Shown piece after piece: positions 31,176-61,265 of a stretch of DNA of 64,000 bases (position 1 is its first letter; each line of letters opens with the position of its first letter). A program made the translations under genes and the position numbers. The DNA comes from Bythopirellula sp. (GTDB taxonomy: Bacteria; Planctomycetota; Planctomycetia; Pirellulales; Lacipirellulaceae), in assembly GCA_965216565.1 (NCBI GenBank), contig OZ244170.1:2720001-2784000 (forward strand), read 5' to 3'. The notes beneath the pieces were generated by a model. It saw only the letters and a list, made by a program, of their open reading frames with translations. It ran no database searches and was not told the origin of the DNA.

Positions 31176-31260
31176 AGCCCCAAAGGGGCGTCAGTTAATA
31201 GCCAGGGGCGCAAGCCCCTGGAACATTGTGCCAGCAATGAAACAAGCCCCAACGGGGCGA
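31176..31260. repeat. REP-like palindromes left of the transposase
   Basis: agccccaaaggggc; aatagccaggggcgcaagcccctgg; agccccaacggggc. Confidence 0.75.
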
Positions 31261-31298: not shown

Positions 31299-31748
31299 GT
31301 GCCACAATCCTTCGGCTCACTTCACTGTCACATTGTTTTCAGCACATAGAGTCGCAAGCCCCTAATCAGCCCGTCATGGCAATCTCGACTTCACGAAGAC
31401 ATCGGAGGCATCCTAAGAGAGAACTCCCACAAACTACTTGCCGCGGGAGGGATGCCCGACCACATTCACCTCTTAACCTCGATGAGTCGCCTGCGATCAG
31501 TGTCTGATTTGGTGCGGGTTGTGAAAACCAATTCTTCTTCCTGGATTCACAAAACCCTCAACGTTCCAGAATTTCAGTGGCAAAACGGATATGGTGCATT
31601 CGCTGTTAGTCTTTCAAATCTCGAACAAGTAAAAAGATATCTGGCCAATCAGGACGAGCACCACCGGACCCGTTCCTTTCAAGAGGAGTTCTTGGGGTTG
31701 TTACAAAAACACGATCTCCAGTGGGACGATCGATACGTGTGGGATTGA
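31299..31748 (+). pseudogene. tnpA: IS200/IS605-family (RAYT-like) Y1 transposase with an internal amber stop
   Basis: GTG 31299 reads MPQSFGSLHCHIVFST*SRKPLI...GGMPDHIHLL...FQWQNGYGAFAVS...YLANQDEHH; TAG at 31347-31349. Confidence 0.85.
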
Positions 31749-31755
31749 TCGGGTC

Positions 31756-31840
31756 TGTCGCCCTTTCAGGGCTTCTTTTTTTTAGCTTTTCGGGCCAGGG
31801 GCTTGCGCCCCTGGCTATTGACCCGTAGCCCCGTTGGGGC
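31756..31840. repeat. REP-like palindromes right of the transposase
   Basis: 31795-31819 is the exact 25-bp reverse complement of 31197-31221; also gccctttcagggc and gccccgttggggc. Confidence 0.75.
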
Positions 31841-31971: not shown

Positions 31972-32745
31972 TCACCGCGCCCCGCTCAAGAGCGGAGCTA
32001 GAATTGCGCTCGCCGCCACCAGTACGAGCAGCACGTAGGTAATTTGGCGGAACAAGGGTTTCGAGAGTCGGTGTCCCCAACCGAATCCAACCCGCAAACC
32101 AATTAGCACCATCGGCAACACAATCAAAGCGGTCGTTGCTGCGGGTAGGATTTTTTCTCCATGTTCCCAATAGAAAGCGGTCGCCACCACGGGGAGTCCC
32201 GTTGCAGAACAAAAAAACAAGAACGCCCGCGACTTTTGAGCCGTCCATGTTAGCCCGTTGAGGTAGATCACCAACGGCGCCCCGCCAATCGCAGCGAAGC
32301 CCATGAGCAATCCCGATGTCGTGTAGGCCAACGTCTGCCAGCCGAGGTTCAACTCGTCTCGGGGCGTCACCCGCAATCCCCACAGCAAGCTGATGGTGAC
32401 GAGCAAGATGGTACCGATCAATTGTTTGGACTGTGCGGGGTCTACATAGGTGTCGGCAAGCGAAGCAACATACGCGCCGCAGGGAATGGCAAGTATCCTC
32501 AGCGTTACCGGCAGCACAAGTTCCTTCGGCTCTAAGTGCGACCAAAGTTTCCAAGCGCCGGTTGTATTCTGCACGGCTGTTGAAACCAGATTGATCGTCG
32601 CTGCCTCGGGGATCGAAAACCCGCTTAGCATCAGCAACGGCACGCACAACAATCCCGATCCAAACCCGACGGCCCCTTGCACGACGCTGCCAAAGGTCAT
32701 GATCACACCGACCAAGGCAATTTCTTCGGGAGAGTACGTGACCAT
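31972..32745 (-). CDS. Sulfite exporter TauE/SafE family membrane protein
   Basis: VQGAVGFGSGLLCVPLL, GFAAIGGAPLVIYL, about 8 TM segments. Confidence 0.85.
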   Translation of the reverse strand: MVTYSPEEIALVGVIMTFGSVVQGAVGFGSGLLCVPLLMLSGFSIPEAATINLVSTAVQNTTGAWKLWSHLEPKELVLPVTLRILAIPCGAYVASLADTYVDPAQSKQLIGTILLVTISLLWGLRVTPRDELNLGWQTLAYTTSGLLMGFAAIGGAPLVIYLNGLTWTAQKSRAFLFFCSATGLPVVATAFYWEHGEKILPAATTALIVLPMVLIGLRVGFGWGHRLSKPLFRQITYVLLVLVAASAILAPLLSGAR

Positions 32746-33032
32746 GGGCAAGTTCAATGGGGACTCTGCGAGAGGACGAAAACGAACTAAGCCCCTACCC
32801 AACTCAAGCTAGTCGCGATTCAATAAATCGTCGACTGGAGGCCGTCTACCCGCGTAGAAACTGTGAGAACAGATTCTTCCGGAGGCAATCTTCATTGACA
32901 CAATCGATTGTGCCCAGACTGTGTCAATCGTCAAGGTCACCACGTTTCTCAGGCCCGGCAGCTTCTTTTGCGTTGTCACACTGAGTCTCGTCAGTGGAAC
33001 GTCCGTGGTGATTTGCACTCGCATTCCACGAC

Positions 33033-33797
33033 TCAGCTCCACCAGCCCCCGTTCACGTGGATGGTCTGTCCCGAGACATAGGATGCCAGGTCACTGCATA
33101 GGAACAAAACGACTGAAGCAATCTCATCAGGCTCGCCAAACCTACCGAGGGGAATCTGGTCTAGCATCTGACGCTGAACCTTATCGGGTATCGCTTTCCC
33201 CATTTCCGTCAACACAACTCCCGGCGCTACGGCGTTGACGGTAATACTCTGCTTGGCCAGCTCACGACTCAATACCTTGGTGAGTGACATAACGCCTGCC
33301 TTGGCCGCTGCGTAGTTGGCTTGACCGTAGGTTCCTACGACAGCAGATAATGAAGCAAGGCTAACGATCCGCCCTCCATCGGCCAAAGAGTGGCTGGCTT
33401 GTTGGCACATGTTGAACACGCCTGTGAGGTTGGTGTCGATCACCTGTTGCCACTGGTCGGAGGTCATGTTGCGAACGGTCCGATCTCGCGTGATTCCGGC
33501 GTTATTGACCACGATGTCAACTTGGCCCCATCGGGACTCAATTTGTTCGAACAAATCGGCAATGGCTGTGGGATCGCGCACGTCTGCGGGCAACGCCACC
33601 GCTCGATCTCCAAGCGCAGCTGCCACTTCCTCTGCTTGTGAGCGATTGCTTATGCCGCTAGCATCAGCCTCGTTCTCGAAGAAGTTGATGGCAACTTTTG
33701 CACCTGCTGCGTAGAGCGATTCGGCAATCGCACGCCCGAGCCCCTGTCCGGCACCGGTGACGATGGCATTCTTCTGAGAGAGATCAATTCGGTTCAT
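33033..33797 (-). CDS. SDR oxidoreductase (FabG/acetoacetyl-CoA reductase-like)
   Basis: TGAGQGLG, NNAGITRD, YAAAK, VNAVAPG. Confidence 0.9.
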   Translation of the reverse strand: MNRIDLSQKNAIVTGAGQGLGRAIAESLYAAGAKVAINFFENEADASGISNRSQAEEVAAALGDRAVALPADVRDPTAIADLFEQIESRWGQVDIVVNNAGITRDRTVRNMTSDQWQQVIDTNLTGVFNMCQQASHSLADGGRIVSLASLSAVVGTYGQANYAAAKAGVMSLTKVLSRELAKQSITVNAVAPGVVLTEMGKAIPDKVQRQMLDQIPLGRFGEPDEIASVVLFLCSDLASYVSGQTIHVNGGWWS

Positions 33798-33939
33798 AGC
33801 TGTGGTTCATCCTCGGAGCGATTTTAAATTGCCTGTCGTTGTTCTGCGACCCCTACTCCTCATCGGTTTCAAATTGCTTATAATCGAAATCTGTGGTGTT
33901 TGATAACCAACGATTGAAGAACACTAGTGAGGCTGACAA

Positions 33940-35382
33940 ATGCGACGACGTGATTTCTTAGTCGGAACTGCAACAGGTTTGGCAACAGCCGGATTGATTT
34001 CGGGTCGCTCAAAGGCAGAAACTCATGATCACGGTGCTCACGAGTTGTGCCAGCACATGTATCCAACGCCTCAGGCTGCGATGCGTTCTCCCCGTGAGAC
34101 CGTGGCGTTTGTACCGGCAATTTATGTTGGCACTGGGATATCAAAACCAGATTATCTAGCGGTCGTGGATCTCGATCCGCAGTCTCCAACATTCAGCCAA
34201 GTTGTGAGTCGTCTCCCCATGCCAAACGTGGGCGACGAACTTCATCATTTCGGCTGGAACGCCTGTAGTAGCTGTCACGGGGAACCTGGGAAATCGCGGC
34301 AGTATCTGGTGCTTCCCGGTTTGGGCTCTGGTCGAATTCATATTGTCGATGTGGCTAACCCGCGTCACCCGAAGTTGCACAAAGTGATCGAAGGCGAAGC
34401 CATTGCCGAGCAGGTGGATCTATCGGCTCCCCACACAGTCCACTGCCTCGCCAACGGGCAGATCATGATTTCTATGTTGGGCGACTCCAAGGGCGAAGGG
34501 CCGGGCGGTTTCCTCTTGCTCGATGATGAATTCGAGATTGTTGGGCGTTGGGAAAAGGAAGCCGAAGCAATGCGATTCAACTACGACTTCTGGTATCAGC
34601 CGCGACACAACGTCATGGTGAGTAGCGAATGGGGAGCGCCTAACACGATACAAGAGGGTTTCAAACTAGAAGATGTACAGGCCGACAAATACGGCCACCA
34701 ACTTCACTTTTGGGACTGGAAAGAAAAGCGTATCAAACAGAGTGTCGACCTGGGTGAAGAAGGCATGATTCCTCTGGAAGTTCGCTTTCACCACGACCCG
34801 GATAGCGCCCACGGTTATGTCGGCGCGGCGCTCAGCAGTGCCATGTGGCATTTCTCCAAAGGAGAGAAACTTTGGGATGTCGAAAAAGCTATTCAGGTCG
34901 ACCCGGTCGAAACAGAGGGCTGGCCATTCCCCGTTCCAGGGTTGATTACGGATTTATTGCTATCGCTCGATGATAAGTGGCTCTATTTTTCAAACTGGCT
35001 TCACGGAGATATTAGGCAATACGACGTTAGCGACCCGGCTAATCCAAAACTCACAGGGCAAGTGTGGCTGGGTGGAGTTATTGGCAAAGAAAGCTCGACA
35101 GATCGCCAGCTAGAAGGTGGCCCACAAATGTTGCAGTTGAGCCTCGATGGCAAGCGGCTCTATGTGACAAACTCTTTGTATAGTCGCTGGGACGATCAAT
35201 TCTATCCTGAGATGGCCAAGAGCGGCTCGTACATGTTGCAGCTCGACTGCAACACTGAGAGCGGCGGGCTGACAGTCAACGAAGATTTCTTCGTTGATTT
35301 TGGAAAAGAGCCAGATGGCCCTGCGCGGGCACACGAGATTAGGTTTCCCGGTGGCGACTGCACGTCGGACATTTGGGTGTAA
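33940..35382 (+). CDS. SBP56/SELENBP1-family protein (putative methanethiol oxidase) with Tat signal
   Basis: MRRRDFL signal; DELHHFGWNACSSC, YDFWYQPRHNVM, GGPQMLQLSLDGKRLY, GGDCTSDIW. Confidence 0.9.
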   Translation: MRRRDFLVGTATGLATAGLISGRSKAETHDHGAHELCQHMYPTPQAAMRSPRETVAFVPAIYVGTGISKPDYLAVVDLDPQSPTFSQVVSRLPMPNVGDELHHFGWNACSSCHGEPGKSRQYLVLPGLGSGRIHIVDVANPRHPKLHKVIEGEAIAEQVDLSAPHTVHCLANGQIMISMLGDSKGEGPGGFLLLDDEFEIVGRWEKEAEAMRFNYDFWYQPRHNVMVSSEWGAPNTIQEGFKLEDVQADKYGHQLHFWDWKEKRIKQSVDLGEEGMIPLEVRFHHDPDSAHGYVGAALSSAMWHFSKGEKLWDVEKAIQVDPVETEGWPFPVPGLITDLLLSLDDKWLYFSNWLHGDIRQYDVSDPANPKLTGQVWLGGVIGKESSTDRQLEGGPQMLQLSLDGKRLYVTNSLYSRWDDQFYPEMAKSGSYMLQLDCNTESGGLTVNEDFFVDFGKEPDGPARAHEIRFPGGDCTSDIWV

Positions 35383-35408
35383 GGCAGTTAGGCCGTTTCA
35401 ATTTTGGG

Positions 35409-36350
35409 CTAGCTTGTGACCGGCATGCTCTTGCCTCGCGCGGCTTCCAATTCCGGCATTGCCTTTTGTAAGGCTTTGATGTGTGCGGGACTTGTGCCGC
35501 AACAGCCACCTAGCAGTCGCACGCCAGCTGCAACCCAGCCGAGTGCCTCCGTGACCAATTCCTCTGGTGGAATGACGTCGACAAACTCCCAATTGGGTTT
35601 CGCAAAATAGCCCGACTCGGGATAGACGCCGATGGGGCCTGACCATCGCTCGCGAATTAGTTCGATGGCGCTGCCAATGGCTCTGATTTCGCTGTGCATA
35701 ATATTCACAACGGTAGGGCCCATCGGGATAAGAGCATCTAGAATCTCAGTGAAATCTGTGTCGGGACAGGCAAAGCTAACAATCCTGCCATCCTCTGCTC
35801 TTTTGCAACTCATCCCAAGCCAAATTGGCAATCCAGTTTCCAACGCTGCCCGCATCGCTCTGGGAGCATGCGTCGTATCTTCCATCATCTCCAACGCAAT
35901 GATGTCTGCCCCGGCCTTTGTAAGAATAGTGGCCGCTTCTCGATACGATTCGAGTTCTTTCTCAGCAGATTGATAGGCGCCTCGATCGAAACCGGGGGGC
36001 ATAGCCGAGATCGACCCAGCCACGGCAACGGCGGCGTCCGCCAGGTTCTCCCGGGCCAATATGGCAAGTTCCACGGCACTACGGTTGACGGTTTCGACTT
36101 GGTCTCCGAAACCAGCCGGTTCCAGCATCTGCCGCGTTGAGCCAAATGTGTTTGCAATGATCACCCGCGACCCAGAGCGAATGTAATCTTCGTGCGTCTC
36201 GCGCACGATGTCGGGATGCGAGAGCACGGCTGCTCCGCTCCACGCCACCATATCCATAGGTACTCCGCGGCGTTGGAGCTCGGTGCCCGTCGCACCATCG
36301 ATAAGTACAATTTCGTTTGCTTCAAGCTTTTGCTGCCAGTTTTTTTTCAT
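35409..36350 (-). CDS. Homocysteine S-methyltransferase family protein
   Basis: LIDGATGTEL, HEDYIRSG..IIANTF, GVYPE, GGCCGT.PAHI; start taken at ATG 36350. Confidence 0.9.
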   Translation of the reverse strand: MKKNWQQKLEANEIVLIDGATGTELQRRGVPMDMVAWSGAAVLSHPDIVRETHEDYIRSGSRVIIANTFGSTRQMLEPAGFGDQVETVNRSAVELAILARENLADAAVAVAGSISAMPPGFDRGAYQSAEKELESYREAATILTKAGADIIALEMMEDTTHAPRAMRAALETGLPIWLGMSCKRAEDGRIVSFACPDTDFTEILDALIPMGPTVVNIMHSEIRAIGSAIELIRERWSGPIGVYPESGYFAKPNWEFVDVIPPEELVTEALGWVAAGVRLLGGCCGTSPAHIKALQKAMPELEAARGKSMPVTS

Positions 36351-36511
36351 AACGTTTCTTTTTTTGCGGCAGTCCTTTTTGGGTGCCACACAATCGGCTA
36401 TATGGTAGCTTAACTAACGATAACAACATCTTCGGCTTTTTATTCTAATCCATGGCTACTCCAGAGTACAAAATGAGTTGGGCCATAATTCGCAAAACAG
36501 ATTGAATATTT

Positions 36512-36524
36512 TTTGTTGAACAAA
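36512..36524. promoter_or_regulatory. Putative operator TTTGTTGAACAAA, copy 1
   Basis: Palindrome (6-1-6) in the divergent HMT/ligase promoter region; identical copies at 47573 and 62324. Confidence 0.65.
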
Positions 36525-36554
36525 TATCTCTCGATGCTAAGTGGAGAAGAGTCC

Positions 36555-38168
36555 TTGAATAGTTTGATGATGGATTTTCCGCTCACGTTAAACTCAATTC
36601 TGCATCGAGCAGAAACGATTCATGGAGAGCGTGAGGTGGTTACGCGGATGCCCGACAGGAGCTGGCACCGATATGGTTACCGCGACATGTCGGACCGCGC
36701 CAAACGATTGGCCCTGGCGCTGTCAAATTTGGGGGTTGAGGCAGGAGATAGAGTCGCCACACTCTGCTGGAATCATTACCGTCACCTCGAAACCTATTTC
36801 GGAATTCCGGCTTATGGGGCAGTGCTACACACGCTCAACCCTCGGCTGCATGAAGACGATCTGGTCCACATCATCAGCGAGGCTGGGGACAAAATTCTGA
36901 TTCTGGACGAGTCTCTGCTACCAGTCTTGGCTAGGTTTCGAGATCGTATCAATCTGGAACATGTCATTGTGATTGCCGAAGGCGGAGAGTTGCCTGAGGG
37001 TATGCACAGCTACGAGACCTTACTCAGCGAAACCGATGTTAACGATTTCAAATACCCAGAGATTGACGAGAATCAAGCCGCTTCGATGTGCTACACCTCT
37101 GGAACAGTCGGCAAGCCGAAGGGTGTTGTTTACTCTCACCGCGCGATCGCGTTACATTCACTGGGCGCAGCGTTGACGTGTGGGTTCGAGATTTGGGAAT
37201 CGGATAGCATTTTGCCAGTGGTGCCCATGTTTCACGTGAATGGCTGGGGCTTGCCCTACATTGCCGCGATGATGGGATCCAAGTTGGTGCTACCCGGCCC
37301 CTCGCTCGATGCAGTGAGTTTGCTTGAAGCCTACGAGCAGGAGCAAGTGACCTTTACGGCCGGTGTTCCGACCATGTGGTTAGCGCTGCTTGAGAAGCTT
37401 GACGAAGATCCGGAGAAATACGACGTCTCGGCCTTGCGCAAGCTGATAGTCGGTGGAGCTGCCATGCCGCAGAGCTTGCTGCAGGCTTTCCAAGAACGAC
37501 ACAATCTAAATCTCGTTGCGGCTTGGGGCATGACGGAAACTACACCGATGGGTACGATCTGCTATCTCAGACCCGGGCAAGAAGAGGCTTCACAGGACGA
37601 GCAGTATGGGTACCGGTGTCGCCAGGGAACACCGGTTCCGTTTGTCGAAATCCGTGCTCGCGGCCCCAATGGTTTAGTTGAGTGGGATGGCAAGACGATG
37701 GGCGAACTGGAAGTTCGCGGTCCTTGGATTACGAGCGGCTACCACAATCGGCCTGACACCGCGGATCGAATTACCGAGGACGGTTGGTTCCGCACTGGCG
37801 ACATTGTCTCGATCAATAAGCGCGGTTCGATGAAAATCGAGGATCGATCGAAGGATCTGATTAAATCGGGGGGCGAGTGGATTAGTTCGGTCGATCTAGA
37901 GAATGCGATAATGGCGCATGAAGACGTTGCCGAGGCAGCGGTCATTGCCATAGATCATCCGAAATGGGGCGAGCGTCCCTTGGCCGCAGTGGTCGCTCGT
38001 CCAGAATCGACACTGAACGTCGAAGAACTGCAAGAATTTCTGGCCTCGGTGGTAGCCAAGTGGTGGATTCCAGATGCATTTGAGATAGTATCTGAGATTC
38101 CGAAGACAGCAACTGGAAAATTCAATAAGGTTGCACTCCGAGAGCAATTCGCGAGACGAAGCGTGTAA
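36555..38168 (+). CDS. Acyl-CoA ligase (DmdB/medium-long-chain fatty acid-CoA ligase-like)
   Basis: YTSGTVGKPKGVVYSHR, PMFHVNGWG, WGMTET, IKSGGEWISS; TTG 36555 follows a GGAG RBS. Confidence 0.88.
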   Translation: MNSLMMDFPLTLNSILHRAETIHGEREVVTRMPDRSWHRYGYRDMSDRAKRLALALSNLGVEAGDRVATLCWNHYRHLETYFGIPAYGAVLHTLNPRLHEDDLVHIISEAGDKILILDESLLPVLARFRDRINLEHVIVIAEGGELPEGMHSYETLLSETDVNDFKYPEIDENQAASMCYTSGTVGKPKGVVYSHRAIALHSLGAALTCGFEIWESDSILPVVPMFHVNGWGLPYIAAMMGSKLVLPGPSLDAVSLLEAYEQEQVTFTAGVPTMWLALLEKLDEDPEKYDVSALRKLIVGGAAMPQSLLQAFQERHNLNLVAAWGMTETTPMGTICYLRPGQEEASQDEQYGYRCRQGTPVPFVEIRARGPNGLVEWDGKTMGELEVRGPWITSGYHNRPDTADRITEDGWFRTGDIVSINKRGSMKIEDRSKDLIKSGGEWISSVDLENAIMAHEDVAEAAVIAIDHPKWGERPLAAVVARPESTLNVEELQEFLASVVAKWWIPDAFEIVSEIPKTATGKFNKVALREQFARRSV

Positions 38169-38217
38169 CTCTTTCCGAACAGTCACGGCCAAACTCTGGC
38201 GACAGGGATCAAAATAG

Positions 38218-39513
38218 ATGAGCAAGTTCAGTAGTTTTAAGTTCGATACGTTATCGCTCCATGCTGGCCAACATCCAGACCCCGCAACTGGGGCCCGTGC
38301 CACGCCCATTTATCAGACGGCGTCTTATGTATTCCGCGACACCGATCACGCTGCATCACTCTTCAACATCGAGCGCACCGGGCACGTCTATTCTCGAATC
38401 TCAAACCCGACCAGTGCTGTCTTGGAAGAACGCATCTCTGCCTTGGAAGGCGGAGTGGGAGCGATCGCGACGTCGAGCGGACAAGCCGCGATGCACCTTG
38501 CCATCGTCACGTTGATGGACGGAGGTTCGCACATCGTCGCTTCGAATTCCCTGTATGGAGGAACGCACAATCTCTTGGCTTATACGATGCCGCGTTTCGG
38601 CATTGAAACCACCTTTGTCGATCCTCGCGATCCCGATGCCTTCCGTGCTGCGATTCAGCCCAATACGCGTCTGGTGTTTGGCGAGATCCTCGGCAATCCT
38701 GGCTTGGAGGTGTTGAATATTCCTGAGATCTCCAAAGTGGCCCACGAAGCGGGACTACCACTGCTCGTAGATTCGACATTCACAACGCCCTATCTCTGCA
38801 AGCCCTTGGAATTGGGTGCCGACTTGGTGTACCACTCCGCGACGAAGTTTCTCGGGGGCCATGGTGTCGCAATTGGAGGTTTGCTCGTGGATGGAGGGAT
38901 TTTTGATTGGGAAGCATCTGGCAAGTTCCCAACGTTGACCGAGCCCTATTCAGGATTTCACAACCTTGATTTCGTCGAAGAATTTGGCCCAGCTGCATTC
39001 ATTACCAGGGCCCGCAAGGAAGGTATCCGAGACTTTGGCGCGTGCATGAGCGCGAATACGGCTTTTCTGATCCTGCAAGGCATGGAAACACTGCCCCTCC
39101 GAATGGAAAAGCATGTCGACAACACTCGAAAAATCATCGATTACCTGAAGCAGCAGGACGCTGTGGAGTGGGTCACCTACCCAGAGCTACCCAACCATCC
39201 TGATCACGTTCTAGCGACTGAGATTTTGCCGAAAGGTTGTGGCGCAGTGTTTAGCTTTGGAATCAAGGGAGGCCGTGCGGCCGGGCAGCAGTTTATCGAA
39301 CGCTTGGAATTGTTCTCGCATCTGGCCAATATTGGCGATGCCAAGTCACTAGTGATTCACCCCGCAAGCACAACTCATCACCGGATGGATGCCGCAGCAC
39401 TTGAGGCGGCTGGCATCTCCGAGGGGTTGGTAAGAATGTCTGTTGGCATCGAGGATGCGGACGATCTGATCGCGGACATCGACAAGGGCTTGCGGGCGGC
39501 GCAGAAGGTTTAG
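38218..39513 (+). CDS. metY: O-acetylhomoserine aminocarboxypropyltransferase/sulfhydrylase
   Basis: PIYQTASY, YSRISNPT, HSATKFLGGHG (PLP Lys), HLANIGDAKSLVIHPASTTH. Confidence 0.93.
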   Translation: MSKFSSFKFDTLSLHAGQHPDPATGARATPIYQTASYVFRDTDHAASLFNIERTGHVYSRISNPTSAVLEERISALEGGVGAIATSSGQAAMHLAIVTLMDGGSHIVASNSLYGGTHNLLAYTMPRFGIETTFVDPRDPDAFRAAIQPNTRLVFGEILGNPGLEVLNIPEISKVAHEAGLPLLVDSTFTTPYLCKPLELGADLVYHSATKFLGGHGVAIGGLLVDGGIFDWEASGKFPTLTEPYSGFHNLDFVEEFGPAAFITRARKEGIRDFGACMSANTAFLILQGMETLPLRMEKHVDNTRKIIDYLKQQDAVEWVTYPELPNHPDHVLATEILPKGCGAVFSFGIKGGRAAGQQFIERLELFSHLANIGDAKSLVIHPASTTHHRMDAAALEAAGISEGLVRMSVGIEDADDLIADIDKGLRAAQKV

Positions 39514-39538
39514 AAGCTCTTTTTGTTTAGGGAATTTC

Positions 39539-40327
39539 ATGGAATTACAAATGAATGGGAAGAGCGTCTACATGGCCACCGGCAATCGCGAGATTGACCC
39601 GGCTCTAGAGACTGTTGTTTTCGTCCACGGTGCAGGTCAGGACCATACAATTTGGGTGTTGCCGACAAGATACTTCGCGCGTCATAGGTTCAACGTGGTG
39701 GCGGTCGATTTGCCGGGGCATGGTCGGTCCGCAGGGCCTTTGCTCAAGTCGGTGGAAGAAATGGCTGACTGGGTGGTAGGTGTACTCGATGGGGTTGGCG
39801 TTAGCTGTGCAGCCGTGATTGGACATAGCATGGGATCGCTTGTGGCCCTCGACATGGCGGCCCGCTACCAAGACCGAGTGCGATCGCTCGCCTTGGTCGG
39901 AACTTCGGTGCCGATGCCCGTGAGCGAGAAACTGTTGTCAACAGCTGAGGCAAACGACCCCGCGACCGTGGATATGCTAACCCTTTGGGGGCACAGTTCT
40001 TCGGCTCACTTAGGCGGCAGTGCCACCCCGGGAATGTGGATGGTGGGGGGTGCCAGACGGCTGCTAGAGCGTTCAGCATCCGGGGTTTTGCATGCCGACT
40101 TGAAGGCTTGCAATGACTATAATCAGGGATTGGAAAAGGCCAGCGATGTGACCAGTCCCGTTCTTCTGGTGCTTGGAAAACGAGATGCAATGACCCCTGT
40201 ACGGGCCACTGGCAAGCTTTGCGACGCACTTGCGAATGTAAAAACTGTTATTCTGGAAGGCTCTGGGCATGCTCTTCTTTCGGAACGTCCCGACGAAGTA
40301 CTCGATGCTCTGATTCAGATTGTCTAA
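39539..40327 (+). CDS. Alpha/beta hydrolase
   Basis: VFVHGAG, DLPGHG, GHSMG nucleophile elbow, distal SGH. Confidence 0.9.
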   Translation: MELQMNGKSVYMATGNREIDPALETVVFVHGAGQDHTIWVLPTRYFARHRFNVVAVDLPGHGRSAGPLLKSVEEMADWVVGVLDGVGVSCAAVIGHSMGSLVALDMAARYQDRVRSLALVGTSVPMPVSEKLLSTAEANDPATVDMLTLWGHSSSAHLGGSATPGMWMVGGARRLLERSASGVLHADLKACNDYNQGLEKASDVTSPVLLVLGKRDAMTPVRATGKLCDALANVKTVILEGSGHALLSERPDEVLDALIQIV

Positions 40328-40357
40328 AAACAAACCGCCAACCACGATATCAGTTCT

Positions 40358-41356
40358 ATGTCTCTCTTAGCCCATAACGACTTGCCTGCGTTTGCGGACC
40401 TCCAGCAAGAGGGCGCCGACGTGGTAGTCGACCAGTCGCAAGCTCAGCCGCACCTGCGCATCGCCTTGCTCAATTTGGTGCCTGATGCTGTTCTGCAAGC
40501 GACTGAGCGCCAATGGTTGCGGTTGTTGGCTAACTATACTGAAGCTCAGATTTCGTTCTTCCCAATCACTGTGGCATCGGAGCAGCGGAGCGAAGCGGCT
40601 CAGGACCACATAGCCCAGCACTACGAGTCCTTTGATTCGATCCGTACTCGCGGAATTGACGCACTGATAGTAACGGGTGCCAATCCTCGAACAGAAGACA
40701 TTACCCAAGAATCGTTCTGGCAGCCGATGTTGGACATTCTCGATTGGGCTCGGCAGGATGGATGTTCGATCCTCTATTCCTGCCTGGCTGTCCATGCAGC
40801 AATGCATGCTTATCTCGATACGGAACGGAACCTCCTGCCGCAAAAGTGTTGGGGCGTTTATCCACACCGTAGAAACGATCCCAAAGACCCCTTGGTTCAG
40901 GGCATTGAGGAAGGCTGGGCGCTGCCTCATTCCCGTCGTTATGAAATCACCAGAGAGCAGTTCGAGGATTCTGGAATGCGAATCCTGATTGAGAGTCAAG
41001 AGGCCGGTGTGCTGCTGGCGGTTGATGGCGAGAATGCCGAGCAACTCTATTTCCAAGGACATCCGGAATACGACGTCAATTCGCTGCTTAAGGAATACAA
41101 GCGGGAGGTCCTGCGGTTCTTCGATGGCGTGCGAGACGATTATCCACCTAACCCAGAGAATTATTTTCCAGTCGAGTGCGCCCCGATATTGGAAGATTAC
41201 AAAGTGCAACTCTCGCGTGCCAAGCAGCTAGAACACGCGCAGCCCGAATTTCCTGAAGAAGAATTGATGCAACACCTGAGAAATTCTTGGGCTACTTCGG
41301 GAGAACGTCTGCTGCACAACTGGCTTGGCCAAGTCCAGTTGGCTACAGTCAGTTAG
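40358..41356 (+). CDS. metA: Homoserine O-succinyl/acetyltransferase (MetA family)
   Basis: ALLNLVPD...ATERQ, DALIVTGA, SCLA (catalytic Cys), PHSR, QGHPEYD..SLLKEYKR. Confidence 0.88.
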   Translation: MSLLAHNDLPAFADLQQEGADVVVDQSQAQPHLRIALLNLVPDAVLQATERQWLRLLANYTEAQISFFPITVASEQRSEAAQDHIAQHYESFDSIRTRGIDALIVTGANPRTEDITQESFWQPMLDILDWARQDGCSILYSCLAVHAAMHAYLDTERNLLPQKCWGVYPHRRNDPKDPLVQGIEEGWALPHSRRYEITREQFEDSGMRILIESQEAGVLLAVDGENAEQLYFQGHPEYDVNSLLKEYKREVLRFFDGVRDDYPPNPENYFPVECAPILEDYKVQLSRAKQLEHAQPEFPEEELMQHLRNSWATSGERLLHNWLGQVQLATVS

Positions 41357-41390
41357 CGACTATCAGTTAGCAAGAGCGTGGCTCTTGGAC

Positions 41391-43493
41391 TCACAAGTCT
41401 CGAAAGTTGCCGCCACTGCTGGCAAGCCTCTTTAGGAGCGGTGCCGGCTGCCACAGTTCTGGCTCAGTCTCAGCAAATTGGCACACGCGATCGTAGACTT
41501 TGTCGAGCCCTACCGAGTCGGCGTAGTACATGGGGCCACCGCGGAAGCCGGGGAATCCGTAGCCGAATAGGTACACGACATCGATATCGCTAGCCCGAGA
41601 TGCGACGCCCTCTTCCAAAATATACGCCCCTTCGTTCACCAATGCATAAACGCAGCGTTCCACAATTTCCTGGTCAGTGATCTCGCGCCGCTCGATGCCT
41701 AGTTCTTTCGACTCGTTGAGGATCATTGTTTCGATCTCAGGGTCGGGGACCGCCTTACGGCTACCCTCGTTGTATCGATACATCCCTGAGCCGGTCTTCT
41801 GACCAAAACGGTTCTGCTCGCAGATGATATCTTGCAGCTTGGAGTAGCGCGCCCCGGGGGGACGGTTTGCTGCTTGACGTTGACGAATGAGCCAGAAAAC
41901 GTCTTGCCCCGCTAAATCGCACATAGCGTGCGGCCCCATGGCAAAGCCGAATTTCTGAAGAGCTCCGTCGACTTGCTGCGGAAGGGCTCCTTCTTCGAGC
42001 AGGAAACACGCTTCTCGTACATAGGGGAAGACCATGCGATTGCCGACGAATCCGTCGCAGACTCTCACGGGTACTCCCACCTTTTTCATCGACTTCACCA
42101 TAGCCATGGACGTCGCAACAGTTTCCTTGCTGGTGGTGTCGGCTCGCACGACTTCGACCAATTTCATGATTTGAGCTGGACTGAAGAAGTGCAGTCCGAT
42201 GACCTTTTCTGGTCGGTTCGTCTGAGCGGCGATATCACCGATGTCGAGCATCGAAGTGTTGGTCGCCAGAATTGCCTCTGGCTTAGCAGTCTCAGAGAGT
42301 TTGTTGAATACTTCCTTCTTGAGCGCCATGTCCTCGAAGACAGCTTCGACAACGATATCTGCTTCGGCCACCTTGTCCCAATTCTGCACGGGAGTGATGC
42401 GTCCTACGATCTGGTCAACATCGCGTTCTGTCATCCGCCCCTTGGCAACTAAGCCAGCGTAATTTTTCTTGATCGCCGCCATGCTGCGTTCCAGAGCTTC
42501 GGGAGACTTGTCAAAAACGCAGACCGGAATCTCCGCCTTGGCAAAGTTCATGGCGATGCCCGTGCCCATGGTCCCTGCACCCAAGATGACTGCCGAATTG
42601 ATCTCCTGGGTAGGCGTATCCTCTGGGACATCGGGGATCTTGGCGCACAGCCGTTCCGCGAAAAAAAGATAGCGAAGTGCTGCTGACTGGTCAGTCGCCA
42701 TGCACTCGGCAAAAATCTCTGCTTCTCTGGCGATTCCCTGATCGAATGGCAAGCTCGTGGCCGCTTCAATGGCATCGACGGCGCGCAGCGGCGATTGCAG
42801 TCCGCGCGATTGCTTCCGTGCCGTTTCCCGCGCTTGATCGAAGACTTCTGCAGAGACGTCCTGCACACGTTCATTCTGCTGACTTGCCAACCGTTTCCCA
42901 TTGCCTTGAGCAATCAGGTCTTCAGCAAATGAGACCGCACCGGCCAGCAAGTCTTCTTCGCCGGACGTCTCGATCACTTGATCAACGAGTCCAATTGCAT
43001 GGGCCTCGGCTGCTGAGATAGGTCGCCCCGAGGTGACCATTTGCAATGCCGACTCGACGCCAACAATTCGGGGCAGTCTTTGAGTTCCCTCACCGCCAGG
43101 AATAATGCCCAAGAATATTTCGGGCAGGCCACAACGACTAGTTGCGTCGGCCACGCGATAATCACATGCCATGGCCAGTTCCAAGCCGCCGCCGAGGGTT
43201 GTGCCATGCATTGCCGCGATCACCGGGCAGTGTAGATTCTCTAGAGCGACGAAGAGAGTATGAAAATCTGGTTGGGCAAACGGTTCCCCCAGCTCATTGA
43301 TATCCGCCCCCGCGATAAAGGTACGTCCCGCGCAGTGAATGACCACTGCCTGAGTCGACGCATCCGCAGCCACCTCTTCCAGGCAATTGACGAGTCCTCG
43401 ACGTACTGTTTCCCCAAGTGCGTTTACCGGCGGGCTATCGATGGTCAGAATCGCGATCGTGCCTTTGTTGCTTCGAGTGACTTCGCTACCCAT
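41391..43493 (-). CDS. Bifunctional enoyl-CoA hydratase / 3-hydroxyacyl-CoA dehydrogenase (FadB/FadJ-like)
   Basis: PPVNAL, GGGLELA, GTQRLPR; GAGTMG, EAVFE, GLHFFSP. Confidence 0.92.
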   Translation of the reverse strand: MGSEVTRSNKGTIAILTIDSPPVNALGETVRRGLVNCLEEVAADASTQAVVIHCAGRTFIAGADINELGEPFAQPDFHTLFVALENLHCPVIAAMHGTTLGGGLELAMACDYRVADATSRCGLPEIFLGIIPGGEGTQRLPRIVGVESALQMVTSGRPISAAEAHAIGLVDQVIETSGEEDLLAGAVSFAEDLIAQGNGKRLASQQNERVQDVSAEVFDQARETARKQSRGLQSPLRAVDAIEAATSLPFDQGIAREAEIFAECMATDQSAALRYLFFAERLCAKIPDVPEDTPTQEINSAVILGAGTMGTGIAMNFAKAEIPVCVFDKSPEALERSMAAIKKNYAGLVAKGRMTERDVDQIVGRITPVQNWDKVAEADIVVEAVFEDMALKKEVFNKLSETAKPEAILATNTSMLDIGDIAAQTNRPEKVIGLHFFSPAQIMKLVEVVRADTTSKETVATSMAMVKSMKKVGVPVRVCDGFVGNRMVFPYVREACFLLEEGALPQQVDGALQKFGFAMGPHAMCDLAGQDVFWLIRQRQAANRPPGARYSKLQDIICEQNRFGQKTGSGMYRYNEGSRKAVPDPEIETMILNESKELGIERREITDQEIVERCVYALVNEGAYILEEGVASRASDIDVVYLFGYGFPGFRGGPMYYADSVGLDKVYDRVCQFAETEPELWQPAPLLKRLASSGGNFRDL

Positions 43494-43923
43494 TTATCTC
43501 CCCTGAAATTCGACCCCAATCGGATACCATAAAGCTTGCCTGGACTTCTGCAACGACATCACCGGTATCGTCCCGAATCGCCTTGCCTTCCATCAGCAGC
43601 AGTGTTCTCTTTTTCTTCACAGCACGCCCCTCCAATCGGAGCAATACTCCCGGCGGATGTGCAGCGCGAAATCGCATTTCTGCCTTCGCGGTGGTTGCTT
43701 TCGCACCCTGCAAAAACCACCAGTTAGCCATGACGTCGTCCAATGCACTGAATAGGATGCCGCCATGGGTGATGCCATCAAAGCCCACGTGATCATCGGT
43801 CGGAGTGAATTCACCACGGCTAACTTGTCCTTCGAGCCGAAAGCTAATCCGTAGCCCTACAGGATTGTGCTCTCCGCAGACAAAGCAGTTATCGGCATCG
43901 TTTCGTCCACGCTTATCACCCAT
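43486..43923 (-). CDS. PaaI family thioesterase
   Basis: CFVCG..NPVGL, HGGILFSALDD hotdog motif; overlaps the start of the FadB-like gene. Confidence 0.88.
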   Translation of the reverse strand: MGDKRGRNDADNCFVCGEHNPVGLRISFRLEGQVSRGEFTPTDDHVGFDGITHGGILFSALDDVMANWWFLQGAKATTAKAEMRFRAAHPPGVLLRLEGRAVKKKRTLLLMEGKAIRDDTGDVVAEVQASFMVSDWGRISGEING

Positions 43924-44082
43924 TATTGATTCGGCTCTAAATCAGATTGTTAGTTGGACCAGCCTGCTGTTAGCCAGCCTCGTCGGTAGTGCAAAGAAGA
44001 CGACTACCGATTATTGCCGAACAGCGATTCGCAAAGTGTCGCCCACTCGAGGAGCAATTTTCACATTGAAGTGTGCGGAAGT

Positions 44083-45834
44083 CTAGTCTGTGGTTTGAAT
44101 TTCAAAGTGCTTCACAATCCAGTCGCGACGCTCCTCGTAGTAGGGCGCATCGACCCAATGCCCTGCATGGGGGTAGACTCGGAAATCTTTCGGTGCTTCG
44201 AGTTTGTTGTAGACGGCAAAGATGGTCACCGGTGGGCAAACGTCGTCTTGTAATCCAAGACCCAAGAATACCGGACAACGGATTCTATCGGTGAAATTCA
44301 GTGCATCGAAGTAGCTTAACGTGTGAAGCATCTTCTCCCACGAACGGTGTGGCTGGGACTTCACCCAGGTGTTGATCTCCGGCCAATCAGAAGTCTTAAA
44401 GTAGCGATCCCAGTTGCAGAGGAAGGGAATATAAGGCGCACAGAGGCTGATCCGATCGTCCAGCCCGGCGGTGACAAGGCTCAGTCCGCCTCCCTGGCTA
44501 CCACCTGTGACGGCGATTCGGCTGCGATCGACTTCGTCGCGCGATGCTAGGAAATCTACTGCCCGCACGCAGTCGGCATAAGCCCCTTGATAGTAGTAGC
44601 CCTGTTTATCATCGAGTCCACGCGTCCAGAAATCCTCGGGAGTACCGCTGACATCTTGCTGGCTGTTTCCATGGCCACGGACATTGAAAGAGAACACAGC
44701 AATCGGATCCGACGTGCCACTGGGCTGCATGTTTTGAGAATATCCGGGAACTCGCAGCAGAGCGGGAACGGGACCATCCGCCTTTGGGCGCTCATACCAA
44801 CCCCGAACGCGAACGTCGCCGAGACTGTGCATGGCGACCTCATAGACCTCATGAGTGGCCGAGTCCAGTTCGGGCTTAGGCATGAGCTGATATTGGGGAG
44901 CAATGGACGCAAGTGCTTGCCGCGTCTCTTTCCAAAACTGGTCAAAATCGTCCGCCCGAGTCAATTCGGTGGTGATCTCTTCCGGTTGGTATCCAAGAAT
45001 CATCGAAGCGGTGCTAACTTCCTCTCCGGTCTCGCACTGAAACTCACATTTCACACGATAAAACCCAGGGACTGTGGGGGAGAATTTGCAGGTGGCCTTC
45101 TGCTCGCCACGGGCGGGTAGCGTAAGCACATTCGTTTCTGTGGAAAGTTGCTCCCCTTCGTCTGTTTCTATGGTCCACCTTAGATGCCCGGTTAGTTGGT
45201 GGGGTGTGTCGTTCGAGATTGAAGTAGAGAAAGGCAACCCTTTTTGCTGAATGAATATCCCGTTGCTCCCTTCATCGAATGAGATTTCCACCAAGTCTTG
45301 CCACGAAGCCACTCTTAGGCTGTAGGGTCCTTCGTACATCCCGCCATCGCTGGCGCCATCATAAACTCGAACGGCGAGGACGTTGTCCGCATCCCAGCTT
45401 AACGACTCGGCAGATACCTTGTAGGTTCGATCTGTGGACCAACTCGTTCCGTAGTTCTCTGGCATGTGTCCGGTCTGGCCAATGAGTGCGCCGTTCCACC
45501 AGGTTTGATCAACATCGTCGATCTTTCCGAGCGAAAGAATCAGTGTACCGAACTCTTTGAAATCAGGATTGTCTCGGAACTTGGCGGGCAGGCGGAGACT
45601 CAAACGATACCAGCCATAGCCGTTGTAGTCTTTGTGGCCCTGCTCTTCCCATGGGGCGCCGACATCGATGGGTTCCCACCCGGAATCATCAAAGGCCGGG
45701 TCGGACCATTGCTTGTCGTCACCGGTGGAAAACTTCCAACCTTCGGAAACTTCTGACGTAATAACTTGCGTTTCCTCTGCCACGACATACGCGGCAGAAA
45801 AGGCGAAGACAGCAACAGACAGTATGAGTCGCAT
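44083..45834 (-). CDS. Secreted acetyl xylan esterase (CE7) with N-terminal sugar-binding-like domain
   Basis: Signal peptide; GYGWYR/LGKIDD domain; DFDQFW, RGHG, GGSQGGG, DDVCPP, GH. Confidence 0.85.
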   Translation of the reverse strand: MRLILSVAVFAFSAAYVVAEETQVITSEVSEGWKFSTGDDKQWSDPAFDDSGWEPIDVGAPWEEQGHKDYNGYGWYRLSLRLPAKFRDNPDFKEFGTLILSLGKIDDVDQTWWNGALIGQTGHMPENYGTSWSTDRTYKVSAESLSWDADNVLAVRVYDGASDGGMYEGPYSLRVASWQDLVEISFDEGSNGIFIQQKGLPFSTSISNDTPHQLTGHLRWTIETDEGEQLSTETNVLTLPARGEQKATCKFSPTVPGFYRVKCEFQCETGEEVSTASMILGYQPEEITTELTRADDFDQFWKETRQALASIAPQYQLMPKPELDSATHEVYEVAMHSLGDVRVRGWYERPKADGPVPALLRVPGYSQNMQPSGTSDPIAVFSFNVRGHGNSQQDVSGTPEDFWTRGLDDKQGYYYQGAYADCVRAVDFLASRDEVDRSRIAVTGGSQGGGLSLVTAGLDDRISLCAPYIPFLCNWDRYFKTSDWPEINTWVKSQPHRSWEKMLHTLSYFDALNFTDRIRCPVFLGLGLQDDVCPPVTIFAVYNKLEAPKDFRVYPHAGHWVDAPYYEERRDWIVKHFEIQTTD

Positions 45835-46005
45835 CGAGGGTCCCTACACATTCTTCTAAATTACAAATTCTGAAACTAACTAACCTGCTCGCGGTGTCAC
45901 CCCCGGAAGGCTTGCCGAGCCGGTTTGATATCGAATGCAGCTTGGCACGATTGGTATCGAGAAGCGTTTATTCGAGTAGCAACTGTATTTGAATACCTCG
46001 CCATA

Positions 46006-47391
46006 TCAATTGCTTGCTGAATTCTGTGAGCCGAGCTCCGTGACCAACTGCGACATTTGTTCGTAGTCTTGCCATTCGCATTCTGTGCAGTCCTCGGTCA
46101 ATACAGGATACTTCCTACGTCTGAGGTTGTGATTCAGGACCAGGTATCTTGTCGATTGGGTCCGAGAACAAATGCAAAGCGTATGGGTCGAGGCAGTACC
46201 GACGTCGAGATAGCGGACCCCATCCAAGAGAGCCGATTCCCCTACACCCGTGGCAATGAGAAACACGTCTTTGTTGCTCGCCACAAACGAAGACGCATCG
46301 CCGAACTTGGCATCATTCACGTAGGCGACCTTTTTGGTCTTTACTCCCTTCTCTACCACCTCTTCCGCTTGTAATGGCACCCATTTGTTTTTCGTCACTT
46401 CTTTGCACTCAATCCATTTCACCGGGATATGGAATACCTTTCCGCCAGTTGCCATGGCAGCGGAGGAGATGAACGCGGCCTCAATGGGTTTGACGATTGC
46501 CGCAAAGGCGTCGATTCCCACCGTACCCAAGCAAGCGCTAATAGCACCCCCCACGGGTGAGCCGGCAAAAGTTCGCAGTCTCCATTTCACTCCCAATGAC
46601 CGCCGAAACGGGCTGATGTCTTTGTTCTCTAACGTCCCCACGGTGAACTGTTCCAGCCGTTTGCCGGAGTGCCGACACGCGTCTTGAATTAGTTTTCTAA
46701 GGACAGAAACTACATCCGAGTGGCTGTTGTCTGCCGTTGACTGTAGCCATTCGTTGGGGTCGAAGGATTCCCCCGCAGCATTCAACGAAGCGGCGATTGT
46801 TGAGCTAACGCATACGGTCAGATATTCGTCCGCCACGATTCGTTGAGGTCTCCCTCGAATGTCTCTGACAATCTCTCCGTCGGCATCCTTCTTCAGCACG
46901 TCGCGGAACGAGCCTGGAGGTCCGCCAACTATCATTGAAGCTGCTCCGGTGTAACCTCGTAGTAAGTCGCCGAGTCCATCTACGGGAATGCAGAGTAACT
47001 CTAGATCCAGATCTGGTTTTTCACGGCGCTCAAGTAGTGCACGGAAAGGTTTCCAAATCTGTTCGGCGTAATCGGGTTTATGATAGAAAGCTGCCGTTTC
47101 CTGTAACTCGGCAAACCGGATATTGAAATTCGCGTCGGCCAAGTAACCTAACATGGTACGCAACACCAGACGTCCGACCGTGGGCCGATACATTCCGCGG
47201 TCTTCGGTATCGTGACCTCCGATTCCTCGACCCATCAGCAAACTTGCCAGAATGCTGGCTTGTTCGGTGCATCTTGTCAGGTCTAACGCAGCGAGTCGAA
47301 CAGCAAGTTGCTCTGAGTTTTCTTTCTGCTCGCTTTCGAATTCTTCTGCTGCATTAAGGGTTGGGGGCGTTTGTGTCATGGGATCGATCAT
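46006..47391 (-). CDS. Divergent class II fructose-1,6-bisphosphatase (GlpX)-fold protein lacking catalytic motifs
   Basis: LDLTRCTEQA..MGRG, PVDG, DVFLIATGV..LLDGVRY and THTL..SRT..TRY align in order with GlpX. Confidence 0.7.
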   Translation of the reverse strand: MIDPMTQTPPTLNAAEEFESEQKENSEQLAVRLAALDLTRCTEQASILASLLMGRGIGGHDTEDRGMYRPTVGRLVLRTMLGYLADANFNIRFAELQETAAFYHKPDYAEQIWKPFRALLERREKPDLDLELLCIPVDGLGDLLRGYTGAASMIVGGPPGSFRDVLKKDADGEIVRDIRGRPQRIVADEYLTVCVSSTIAASLNAAGESFDPNEWLQSTADNSHSDVVSVLRKLIQDACRHSGKRLEQFTVGTLENKDISPFRRSLGVKWRLRTFAGSPVGGAISACLGTVGIDAFAAIVKPIEAAFISSAAMATGGKVFHIPVKWIECKEVTKNKWVPLQAEEVVEKGVKTKKVAYVNDAKFGDASSFVASNKDVFLIATGVGESALLDGVRYLDVGTASTHTLCICSRTQSTRYLVLNHNLRRRKYPVLTEDCTECEWQDYEQMSQLVTELGSQNSASN

Positions 47392-47427
47392 GGCTTTGGT
47401 CCACCAAAGGGCTTTGGTCCACCAAAG
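47392..47427. repeat. Tandem duplication of an 18-bp palindromic unit
   Basis: ggctttggtccaccaaag twice; core ctttggt-cc-accaaag. Confidence 0.8.
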
Positions 47428-47572
47428 CTAGTTAGTGAATTGTGGATTGGCTGCTTAGTAAATTAACTTGTTCAAGAAAACCAGCTTCGGTGGCATTGTG
47501 ATACACACTTTTATTCACGCCTAGTGGCCAATCTACAACGGGTACCGCCCGGAATCGAAGGATAGAGATTTT

Positions 47573-47585
47573 TTTGTTCAACAAA
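47573..47585. promoter_or_regulatory. Putative operator TTTGTTGAACAAA, copy 2 (reads TTTGTTCAACAAA on +)
   Basis: Reverse-complement identical to copies 1 and 3; partial sites at 47468 and 47599. Confidence 0.55.
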
Positions 47586-49380: not shown

Positions 49381-49474
49381 ATCTTTGTCCCCGTCCTGAG
49401 TGGCAGTAGGGTGGATTGGCAGAACCAGTTTTCGAACACTACTAAATTTTGATACTTCGAGAGGGAGACGTCTA

Positions 49475-50221: not shown

Positions 50222-50258
50222 GCTTTGGCGAATACAATAGAGAGACTAGGTATCTGGG

Positions 50259-50285
50259 CAGCCGTTTCCCCACAGGAAGCGGCTG
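50259..50285 (+). terminator. Stem-loop between the PEP-CTERM genes and the sulfotransferase fusion
   Basis: cagccgtttcc-ccaca-ggaagcggctg with only a weak U-tract. Confidence 0.45.
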
Positions 50286-50338
50286 TCTTGCAATGTATTT
50301 GGTCACAAGCATTACGAAGGAATAGGTAAGAGCGAAAC

Positions 50339-53077: not shown

Positions 53078-53080
53078 AGT

Positions 53081-61249: not shown

Positions 61250-61265
61250 GTCTCTCTCCTATCAC

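Follow-up and report, generated by a model that had tools for sequence, protein, structure and literature searches.

We analyzed a 64,000-nucleotide stretch of a Bythopirellula sp. genome (assembly GCA_965216565.1, contig OZ244170.1, positions 2,720,001 to 2,784,000; hereafter the window, in genome G000), which carries a gene cluster built around a homocysteine S-methyltransferase, an acyl-coenzyme A (CoA) ligase, an O-acylhomoserine sulfhydrylase (MetY) and an alpha/beta hydrolase. The proposal that this cluster imports a dimethylsulfonium acid and, with no need for the demethylase DmdA, uses the methyl group as well as the sulfur of that acid to make methionine stands, in our judgement, at about an even chance. 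That the substrate is dimethylsulfoniopropionate (DMSP) itself is plausible at somewhat less than even weight, and there is a slim chance that it is another sulfonium, possibly gonyol or dimethylsulfonioacetate. The proposal is based on gene content, synteny, the absence of DmdA and DmdC matches, residue conservation and a modelled complex of MetY with the hydrolase, and every chemical step in it is inferred from these.

The conserved core consists of the methyltransferase, the acyl-CoA ligase, metY and the hydrolase, and is smaller than the cluster that an earlier, sequence-only reading of the window had proposed. The stand-alone methyltransferase of 313 aa, placed here in an 'MH' subfamily (35409-36350, minus strand), lies divergent, across 216 bp, from a DmdB-like short/medium-chain acyl-CoA ligase (36567-38168, plus strand). 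The ligase gene is followed on the same strand by metY (38218-39513), the gene of a hydrolase from an uncharacterised family (39539-40327) and a gene for the homoserine O-acyltransferase MetA (40358-41356), with intergenic gaps of 49, 25 and 30 bp. On the minus strand lie a bifunctional FadB-type enoyl-CoA hydratase/3-hydroxyacyl-CoA dehydrogenase (41391-43493), a probable member, and a PaaI-like hotdog thioesterase (43486-43923), a possible member whose gene overlaps fadB by 8 bp. All eight open reading frames named in the sequence-only reading are intact and have the order and strands it gave, which bears out the arrangement of an SBP56 gene, the divergent methyltransferase, the ligase-metY-hydrolase-metA run and the paaI-fadB pair; its inventory overlooked a DddT-like BCCT transporter gene (56740-58239, minus strand), whose product is the likely importer and whose membership is uncertain. 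The locus is not an assembly artefact, since single contigs span the region in two sequencing runs. Run X4, possibly the source, holds 32500-46000 within one contig, and run X5, an 'algae metagenome' from a separate study, has a single contig across 33416-46000 that shows 101 differences over 12.6 kb (~99% identity), while further X5 contigs cover 44000-63000; the strain is present in this algal metagenome. The genome itself is a single 5.2 Mb contig and is 94% complete.

A genome scan with the methyltransferase yielded 10 loci, and a search of 251 Pirellulaceae genomes yielded 3 matches. Two loci, L022 on a Pirellulaceae chromosome (G459) and L121 in G471, have an identical six-gene order, in which fadN-metY-hydrolase-BCCT faces the methyltransferase gene and the latter stands back to back with the ligase gene. 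Their genes are 54-80% identical to each other, so the two are not near-identical strains, and 49-79% identical to five window orthologues. The back-to-back methyltransferase-ligase pair is found at all three loci, and a 3-hydroxyacyl-CoA dehydrogenase/hydratase gene lies in or beside the cluster at each of them, the FadN-type enzyme of the Pirellulaceae being non-orthologous to the window FadB (26-28% identity). The hotdog thioesterase (PF03061, 31 bits) is not conserved at L022 and L121. The synteny to be expected of a functional cluster thus holds for the methyltransferase-ligase and metY-hydrolase pairs, which recur in two Pirellulaceae genomes, and fails for the SBP56 and tauE-family genes, which are absent there.

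The module is rare, and in the window genome it is supplementary. No methyltransferase of more than 33% identity was found in 60 relatives, and a search of 400 genomes of the phylum gave matches at E 1e-40 or better in 2 (46% and 33%). The plasmid search gave one match (33%), and the metagenome scan returned mostly distant methyltransferases (~30%), hence little added synteny. The ligase was found in 3 of 119 members of the family, and an L022-type BCCT query matched a single genome among 301 of the order, that of the window. Elsewhere in the genome are MetH, two other Cys/Met enzymes dependent on pyridoxal 5′-phosphate (PLP) and two genes of the 3′-phosphoadenosine 5′-phosphosulfate (PAPS) reductase family. 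Composition gave no signal of recent horizontal transfer and codon use was not atypical; the patchy distribution is the sole evidence for such transfer. A single clade for the four planctomycete methyltransferases was neither rejected nor shown (approximately unbiased test, p 0.113), and a single origin with later transfer or loss and repeated assembly are equally likely.

The methyltransferase matches PF02574 (172 bits) and has the features of that family, namely the barrel fold, the DG..TE motif, the conserved Glu and the GGCC motif; its model (predicted local distance difference test, pLDDT, 90.6) has the barrel fold of MetH, BHMT and MmuM. It falls below the NCBIfam cut-offs for MmuM (131 of 215 bits) and PRK07534 (97 of 338 bits), the latter score placing it outside the Bmt family. 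The three-Cys zinc site of BHMT, Bmt and MmuM (G-x-N-C plus GGCC) is incomplete in the window enzyme, where His219 sits at the position expected for the first zinc Cys, in N-I-M-H instead of G-I-N-C; this His aligned with the GINC Cys of MmuM/MetH in two of three PDB alignments. Cys283/Cys284, Glu154, Trp37 and the DGxxGTE motif are kept, Trp37 being common to MmuM and absent from the two MetH domains in the alignment. Position 219 is His in all 120 close homologues and in 132 of the 133 rows of a more distant set (the query and 132 full-length proteins among the best 150 representatives), and this His would presumably bind the zinc. The stand-alone form, Trp37 and the BCCT neighbour suggest that the enzyme may take its methyl group directly from an onium donor.

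The MH subfamily numbers 2414 proteins or more at an E-value cut-off of 1e-30, and its close homologues (70-78%) are numerous and mainly metagenomic, the named ones coming from Woeseiaceae, Paracoccaceae and Vicinamibacteria. No characterised member was found, and the subfamily is large and apparently uncharacterised. The Bmt of Phaeobacter inhibens is described as transferring methyl groups from DMSP and betaine to homocysteine in vitro, and mammalian BHMT as also accepting DMSP (PMC12366255); the Ruegeria Bmt orthologue is presented as one piece of a split MetH, its homocysteine module (PMC12478193). The window enzyme resembles Bmt, mammalian BHMT and E. coli MmuM in its PF02574 fold, Cys-Cys zinc motif and stand-alone architecture, whereas it differs from them in its scores under the family cut-offs and in the subfamily-wide His that replaces the first zinc Cys. 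Unlike Bmt as a split-MetH module, it occurs in a genome with an intact MetH and is encoded among catabolic genes.

The ligase passes the broader fatty-acid ligase model PRK06187 (574 bits, cut-off 476) and retains equivalents of DmdB H231, W235, G302, G303, W326, P333 and K523, which are reported as tied to methylmercaptopropionate (MMPA), ATP and CoA (PMC6850173). These pocket motifs are equally retained in unlinked ligase relatives of G013 and G014, and the three clustered ligases group together in the tree (88/95). The sequence-only reading had pointed to DmdB for this step; the DmdB model PRK07008 gave 627 bits against a cut-off of 822, and by these comparisons the enzyme is DmdB-like and no more than a candidate DmdB. 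In another genome of the family of the window strain (L178, G027:C20, 3972-10679), genes for a DmdC-type dehydrogenase, a crotonase-like protein and a ligase relative (41%) form one run that resembles a dmdC-dmdD-dmdB set.

MetY scored 795 bits against PRK08134 (cut-off 636) and has its PLP lysine in the motif SATK at 207-210. MetY enzymes are reported to fix methanethiol (PMC5069961, PMC6302742). MetA just exceeded the cut-off of its NCBIfam model PRK05368.1-3 (359.6 of 358 bits), and the window copies of metY and metA are the only ones in the genome. MetA is the likely supplier of the MetY substrate, because no MetX match was found in G000; G459 and G471 lack MetA and have MetX-like genes elsewhere in the genome, so each of the three genomes has a source of O-acylhomoserine for MetY. 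The hydrolase has the triad Ser97, Asp216 and His244 and no close solved relative; a structure-based search for its substrate gave nothing closer than 25% identity. At every locus examined, its gene directly follows metY. It was found in none of 300 sampled planctomycetes, and a metY of the window type occurs in 2 of 60 relatives.

Outside the planctomycetes, searches of 201 genomes of the order of G461, a gammaproteobacterial order, gave the hydrolase in 23, and loci were fetched from 16 of the 22 genomes besides G461. The results showed that metY lies directly upstream of the hydrolase gene in all 16. The pair is followed by metA in 11 of the 16, all in small genomes that are probably kin. 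A DmdC-type dehydrogenase gene adjoins the pair in 3 of the 16 loci and a DmdA-like gene in 2. The G461 locus (L115) contains metA, metY, the hydrolase gene, fadN, a DmdC-type gene and a DmdA-like gene, and the DmdA-like genes beside metY-hydrolase (the set of L115, L162 and L165, with L115 and L165 close kin) reach 350-387 bits where the NCBIfam cut-off is 410. The pair is a widespread fixed gene pair and a general unit, not specific to DMSP, because it also occurs without nearby DMSP genes in G017, G044 and a Ralstonia record. In G017, which belongs to the genus of the window strain and is 93% complete, neither MetA nor MetX was found; its pair (L111, G017:C70) lies beside an orthologue of the esterase gene at 44083-45834 of the window.

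A model of MetY with the hydrolase scored 0.88, versus 0.00 for the best of 3 controls. Of 157 solved complexes, 116 reached the mark used for such scores, as did 2 of 215 mismatched pairs; these counts are rough because the alignments were our own. At least 91% of the contacts are common to the runs, and the pLDDT of the partners is at least 94. The hydrolase residues at the predicted interface, 37-48 and 157-171, are better conserved than any other part of the protein except the triad. The model supports the prediction that the hydrolase binds MetY. A Pelagibacter alpha/beta hydrolase gene beside dmdA has reportedly been proposed as a substitute for DmdD; a search by locus tag found no occurrence of it.

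The transporter gene lies ~13 kb from the cluster and encodes the only BCCT of the genome. Its best PDB match was DddT (490 bits, vs 262 for CaiT), as was that of the L022 BCCT (521 bits, vs at most 250). The window BCCT is 49-50% identical to the in-cluster BCCTs of L022 and L121, and BCCT genes of this type occur in three (G000, G459 and G471, not G460) of the four planctomycetes whose methyltransferase is 60% identical or more. It keeps the listed residues of the DMSP and sodium sites of DddT except for Y112F, A99G and L252I. Compared with DddT of Psychrobacter sp. D2 (PDB 21FF), it is thus alike in being best matched by it and in nearly all listed site residues, whereas dddT is defined in the published account by adjoining dddD/dddX lyases (PMC13270143). 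The neighbors here are short-chain (SDR) and medium-chain (MDR) dehydrogenase/reductase genes and an acetoacetate-CoA ligase gene, and at L022/L121 they are the module with its methyltransferase. As judged from these comparisons, the transporter would argue more firmly for an onium substrate than for DMSP. The window gene is the last of an operon SDR-MDR oxidoreductase-acetoacetate-CoA ligase-BCCT (56740-62165, minus strand), and SDR-MDR-BCCT recurs at 56-62% identity in G461 (L169), without the acetoacetate-CoA ligase, between an amidohydrolase and a carboxylesterase. A second G461 locus (L170, G461:C51) contains a carnitine/butyrobetaine-type cluster (BKACE, dehydrogenases, BCCT) joined to trimethylamine-type methyltransferase, MetF, pterin-binding and RACo genes. 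Between the window cluster and the BCCT operon (48148-54910, plus strand), the sequence reads as PEP-CTERM-like proteins and a phosphodiesterase/TPR/sulfotransferase-like protein.

The genes of the known DMSP pathway were compared with the genome content. No DmdA was found in G000, G459 or G471 (best matches 23-29%); the PF01571 matches of G000 are one gcvT-sized gene and one weak second gene, and a DmdA-like query matched there at 23%. A DmdC-type query at E 1e-5 found no DmdC-type dehydrogenase in G000. With the queries used, dmdA and a DmdC-type dehydrogenase are absent from the whole genome, as the sequence-only reading had stated for the window, the ddd lyases not having been searched for genome-wide. 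As a hydratase for methylthioacryloyl-CoA (MTA-CoA), the cluster offers only the crotonase domain of FadB, no genome-wide search for DmdD or AcuH having been made. Relative to the canonical DmdA-DmdB-DmdC-DmdD/AcuH pathway with MetY described in Ruegeria and Pelagibacter (PMC5395565, PMC5069961), the cluster is alike in its DmdB-like ligase, crotonase-domain enzyme and MetY, and dmdA/dmdC-like genes lie next to metY-hydrolase at the loci L115, L162 and L165. It is unlike that pathway in having no DmdA, DmdC-type dehydrogenase or stand-alone DmdD, and in having a homocysteine methyltransferase in the place of the demethylase, so that the acceptor would be homocysteine instead of folate. The module works like DMSP demethylation as we read it, yet it is not a member of the canonical pathway, because DmdA and DmdC are both missing. 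The earlier idea that the methyltransferase replaces DmdA and that both groups reach methionine is supported in part: an onium-to-methionine role without DmdA is favored by the Pirellulaceae synteny with a DddT-like BCCT and by metY-hydrolase pairs beside dmdA/dmdC-like genes; for the passage from MMPA-CoA to methanethiol, no DmdC was found.

On the most economical reading, the route would begin with import of the sulfonium by the BCCT. The methyltransferase, with a putative His/Cys/Cys zinc site, would use homocysteine as the acceptor of one S-methyl group, so that methionine and a methylthio acid (MMPA in the case of DMSP) are formed; the divergently encoded ligase would convert this acid into its CoA ester. 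Because DmdC is missing, this ester would probably be oxidised by a borrowed enzyme, the resident dehydrogenase, unless a different substrate or an elimination is involved. The hydratase domain of FadB or FadN would then add water, after which methanethiol would leave spontaneously, as is described for MTA-CoA hydration by DmdD (PMC3660561). The hydrolase, predicted to be bound to MetY, would cleave, close to the MetY site, either the thioester left over or a methyl thioester. FadB or FadN together with the hydrolase would act as a split DmdD. Finally, MetY would join the methanethiol to the O-acylhomoserine made by MetA. Gonyol and dimethylsulfonioacetate are described as frequent sulfoniums of algae, from which methanethiol arises by routes yet to be identified (PMC7221440). 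All three loci have a hydroxyacyl-CoA dehydrogenase, for which a 3-hydroxy compound, gonyol for one, would be a fitting substrate.

Several observations weigh against this route. The MMPA-CoA oxidation step has no dedicated gene: the single acyl-CoA dehydrogenase of G000 (644 aa) is not of the DmdC type, DmdC 6IJC being outside its best 60 PDB matches, and G459 shows one acyl-CoA dehydrogenase only, of ~700 aa. Besides missing the DmdB cut-off, the ligase has a better PDB match in ttLC-FACS (520 bits) than in DmdB 6IHK (439 bits), and relatives of 63-66% identity stand alone near glnA in G013 and G014. A methyltransferase with 39% identity or more across 270 or more residues was present at 32 fetched loci (two of which share one sequence); only L022 and L121 among them carry the partners, and ligase, metY, hydrolase and BCCT are lacking at the other 30, including 21 of the 23 loci that had 8 kb or more of flank on each side, so the methyltransferase family as a whole is not tied to the route. 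The three clustered methyltransferases formed a single clade in one tree (97/88) and a grade in a second, and given this discordance the three loci may reflect one origin. Bmt is reported not to have substituted for DmdA in Phaeobacter under standard growth (PMC12366255). The occurrence of metY-hydrolase without the methyltransferase in G017 and G044, and without DMSP genes nearby in Ralstonia, points the same way, and the complex was modelled with a single MetY chain, whose predicted surface may serve the MetY oligomer. As for the transporter, the copy in the SDR-MDR-BCCT operon of L169 is nearer to the window BCCT (61%) than the in-cluster copies are, the in-cluster BCCTs of L022 and L121 have Val at the aromatic-box position of DddT Tyr324, and a 44% relative lies in the carnitine-type cluster L170. 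Moreover, two metagenomic DddT homologues are reported not to have transported DMSP, and the site residues are described as no guarantee of DMSP transport (PMC13270143).

These observations bear on three other explanations. The donor may be an N-methyl onium compound (glycine betaine, carnitine-derived or similar) imported by the BCCT, with the ligase, MetY and the hydrolase separately salvaging methylthio acids or methanethiol, so that the genes would form a general methionine-scavenging island and not a single pathway. DddT-like BCCTs that include one in a carnitine-type cluster and two non-DMSP transporters are consistent with this, as are the use of betaine by BHMT and Bmt and the metY-hydrolase pairs found without the methyltransferase. 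We nevertheless consider it rather unlikely: no dimethylglycine/sarcosine or carnitine catabolic genes were found among the annotated neighbors of L022 and L121, the methyltransferase stands back to back with a CoA ligase at three loci, which fits a carboxylic demethylation product, and metY-hydrolase adjoins dmdA/dmdC-like genes in some genomes. Less probable still is that the methyltransferase is an MmuM-like recycler of S-methylmethionine, or of R-S-adenosylmethionine (R-SAM), serving an endogenous sulfonium pool that might come from a pair of SET-domain and AdoMet-decarboxylase-like genes. MmuM does give its best stand-alone NCBIfam score and many homologues bear an automatic S-methylmethionine-dependent name, but that score is far under the cut-off, and neither a ligase nor MetY or MetA would be needed for S-methylmethionine, which gives two methionines. 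The gene pair does exist (L175, G000:C1:1474846-1475699), a small SET-like gene overlapping an AdoMet-decarboxylase-like gene with a PF02675 match, yet its first gene was not found in G459 and was faint in G471 (E 3e-4), while G012, which has no module, has a 64% match.

Alternatively, the genes may form a loose assemblage, in which direct-sulfhydrylation methionine synthesis (metA-metY with sulfide) happens to lie beside a fatty-acid ligase and beta-oxidation genes. The 11 small gammaproteobacterial genomes with metY-hydrolase-metA have no catabolic neighbors, DmdB/DmdC-type enzymes are described as having broad fatty-acid specificity (PMC5395565), and in the window codon use is ordinary, promoter sites are at chance level and Rfam gives no riboswitch, all of which would suit such an assemblage. 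However, 58 of 60 relatives lack this metY, and the single-contig genome G012 also lacks MetA and MetX; with these gaps the genes are not housekeeping genes here, and housekeeping methionine synthesis was rejected as unlikely on the rarity of metY in relatives and the other methionine genes of the genome. The six-gene order is also maintained across 54-80% identity. We rate the loose assemblage as improbable, to much the same degree as the MmuM-like recycler or marginally more so, and retain the sulfonium-to-methionine route.

The genes at the upstream side were considered separately. An SBP56 protein of the type of SELENBP1 and the Roseobacter methanethiol oxidase RdMTO (33940-35382, plus strand) and a tauE-family gene, which together with a FabG-like SDR gene occupies 31972-33797 (minus strand), had been taken as cluster parts; both were rejected as module members, given their absence from L022 and L121 and the presence of SBP56 in 15 of 60 relatives. 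The tauE-family gene is upstream of SBP56 as described, but not immediately, since the FabG-like SDR gene (33033-33797) intervenes; both count as flanking genes, and neither was seen at L022, L121 or the 11 fetched SBP56 loci. The SBP56 homologues in relatives (64-76%) occur without a close methyltransferase, and 11 fetched SBP56 loci had no other window gene in 1.5 kb flanks. The protein scored 719 bits against PF05694 and 135 of 650 against the MtoX equivalog NF052453, far under its cut-off. Like the copper methanethiol oxidases SELENBP1 and RdMTO (PMC13603461), it has six copper ligands and a C-terminal Cys (H102/H103, H165/H168, D216, E280 and C474) and a CSSC motif, as far as mapping by motif spacing, with the human sequence unaligned, can tell. 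Unlike them, it has a twin-arginine leader; its gene is common in planctomycetes and in other genomes has no link to the module. The leader was also found in the 8 SBP56 relatives compared, and planctomycete SBP56 proteins of the SELENBP1 type (that of the window and those of L143-L152) are probably exported; the window protein likely oxidises methanethiol outside the cytoplasm as a resident neighbor.

Rfam gave no riboswitch, and promoter and terminator scans gave sites no more frequent than chance. An Acido-Lenti-1 RNA was detected at 31176-31221 (48.7 bits), with a weak second one at 31795-31826, flanking an IS200-like transposase fragment (31452-31826 region). At 46006-47391 (minus strand), a 461-aa protein has a weak match to GlpX (class II fructose-bisphosphatase) in its C-terminal half only. 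The best match of one nearby gene is a Planctomycetaceae-type sigma factor model, and Bythopirellula sp. is the label on near homologues of two cluster genes.

There is precedent for the chemistry in Bmt, DmdB, MetY and DddT, and DMSP:homocysteine methyl transfer is already in print (PMC12366255). The dedicated cluster, the His subfamily and the MetY-hydrolase complex were not found in the literature covered, which excluded most subscription papers and all supplements. We tentatively propose, as a reading more doubtful than probable, a dedicated DMSP demethylation without DmdA or DmdD, in which a subfamily of His-zinc DMSP:homocysteine methyltransferases, abundant in public metagenomes, would feed a MetY-hydrolase complex that captures methanethiol upon its release; the same complex would then carry out the methanethiol-handling step in many demethylators that lack DmdD. 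Marine DMSP demethylation is counted with dmdA, and a methyltransferase-based, folate-free planctomycete route, if true, would be invisible to this marker and would yield two methionines per DMSP. Most dmdA-bearing bacteria are described as having no DmdD (PMC5395565). The widespread metY-hydrolase pair, as a predicted complex, gives a direct handle on how such bacteria release and keep methanethiol and may bear on the share of the sulfur that escapes as gas.

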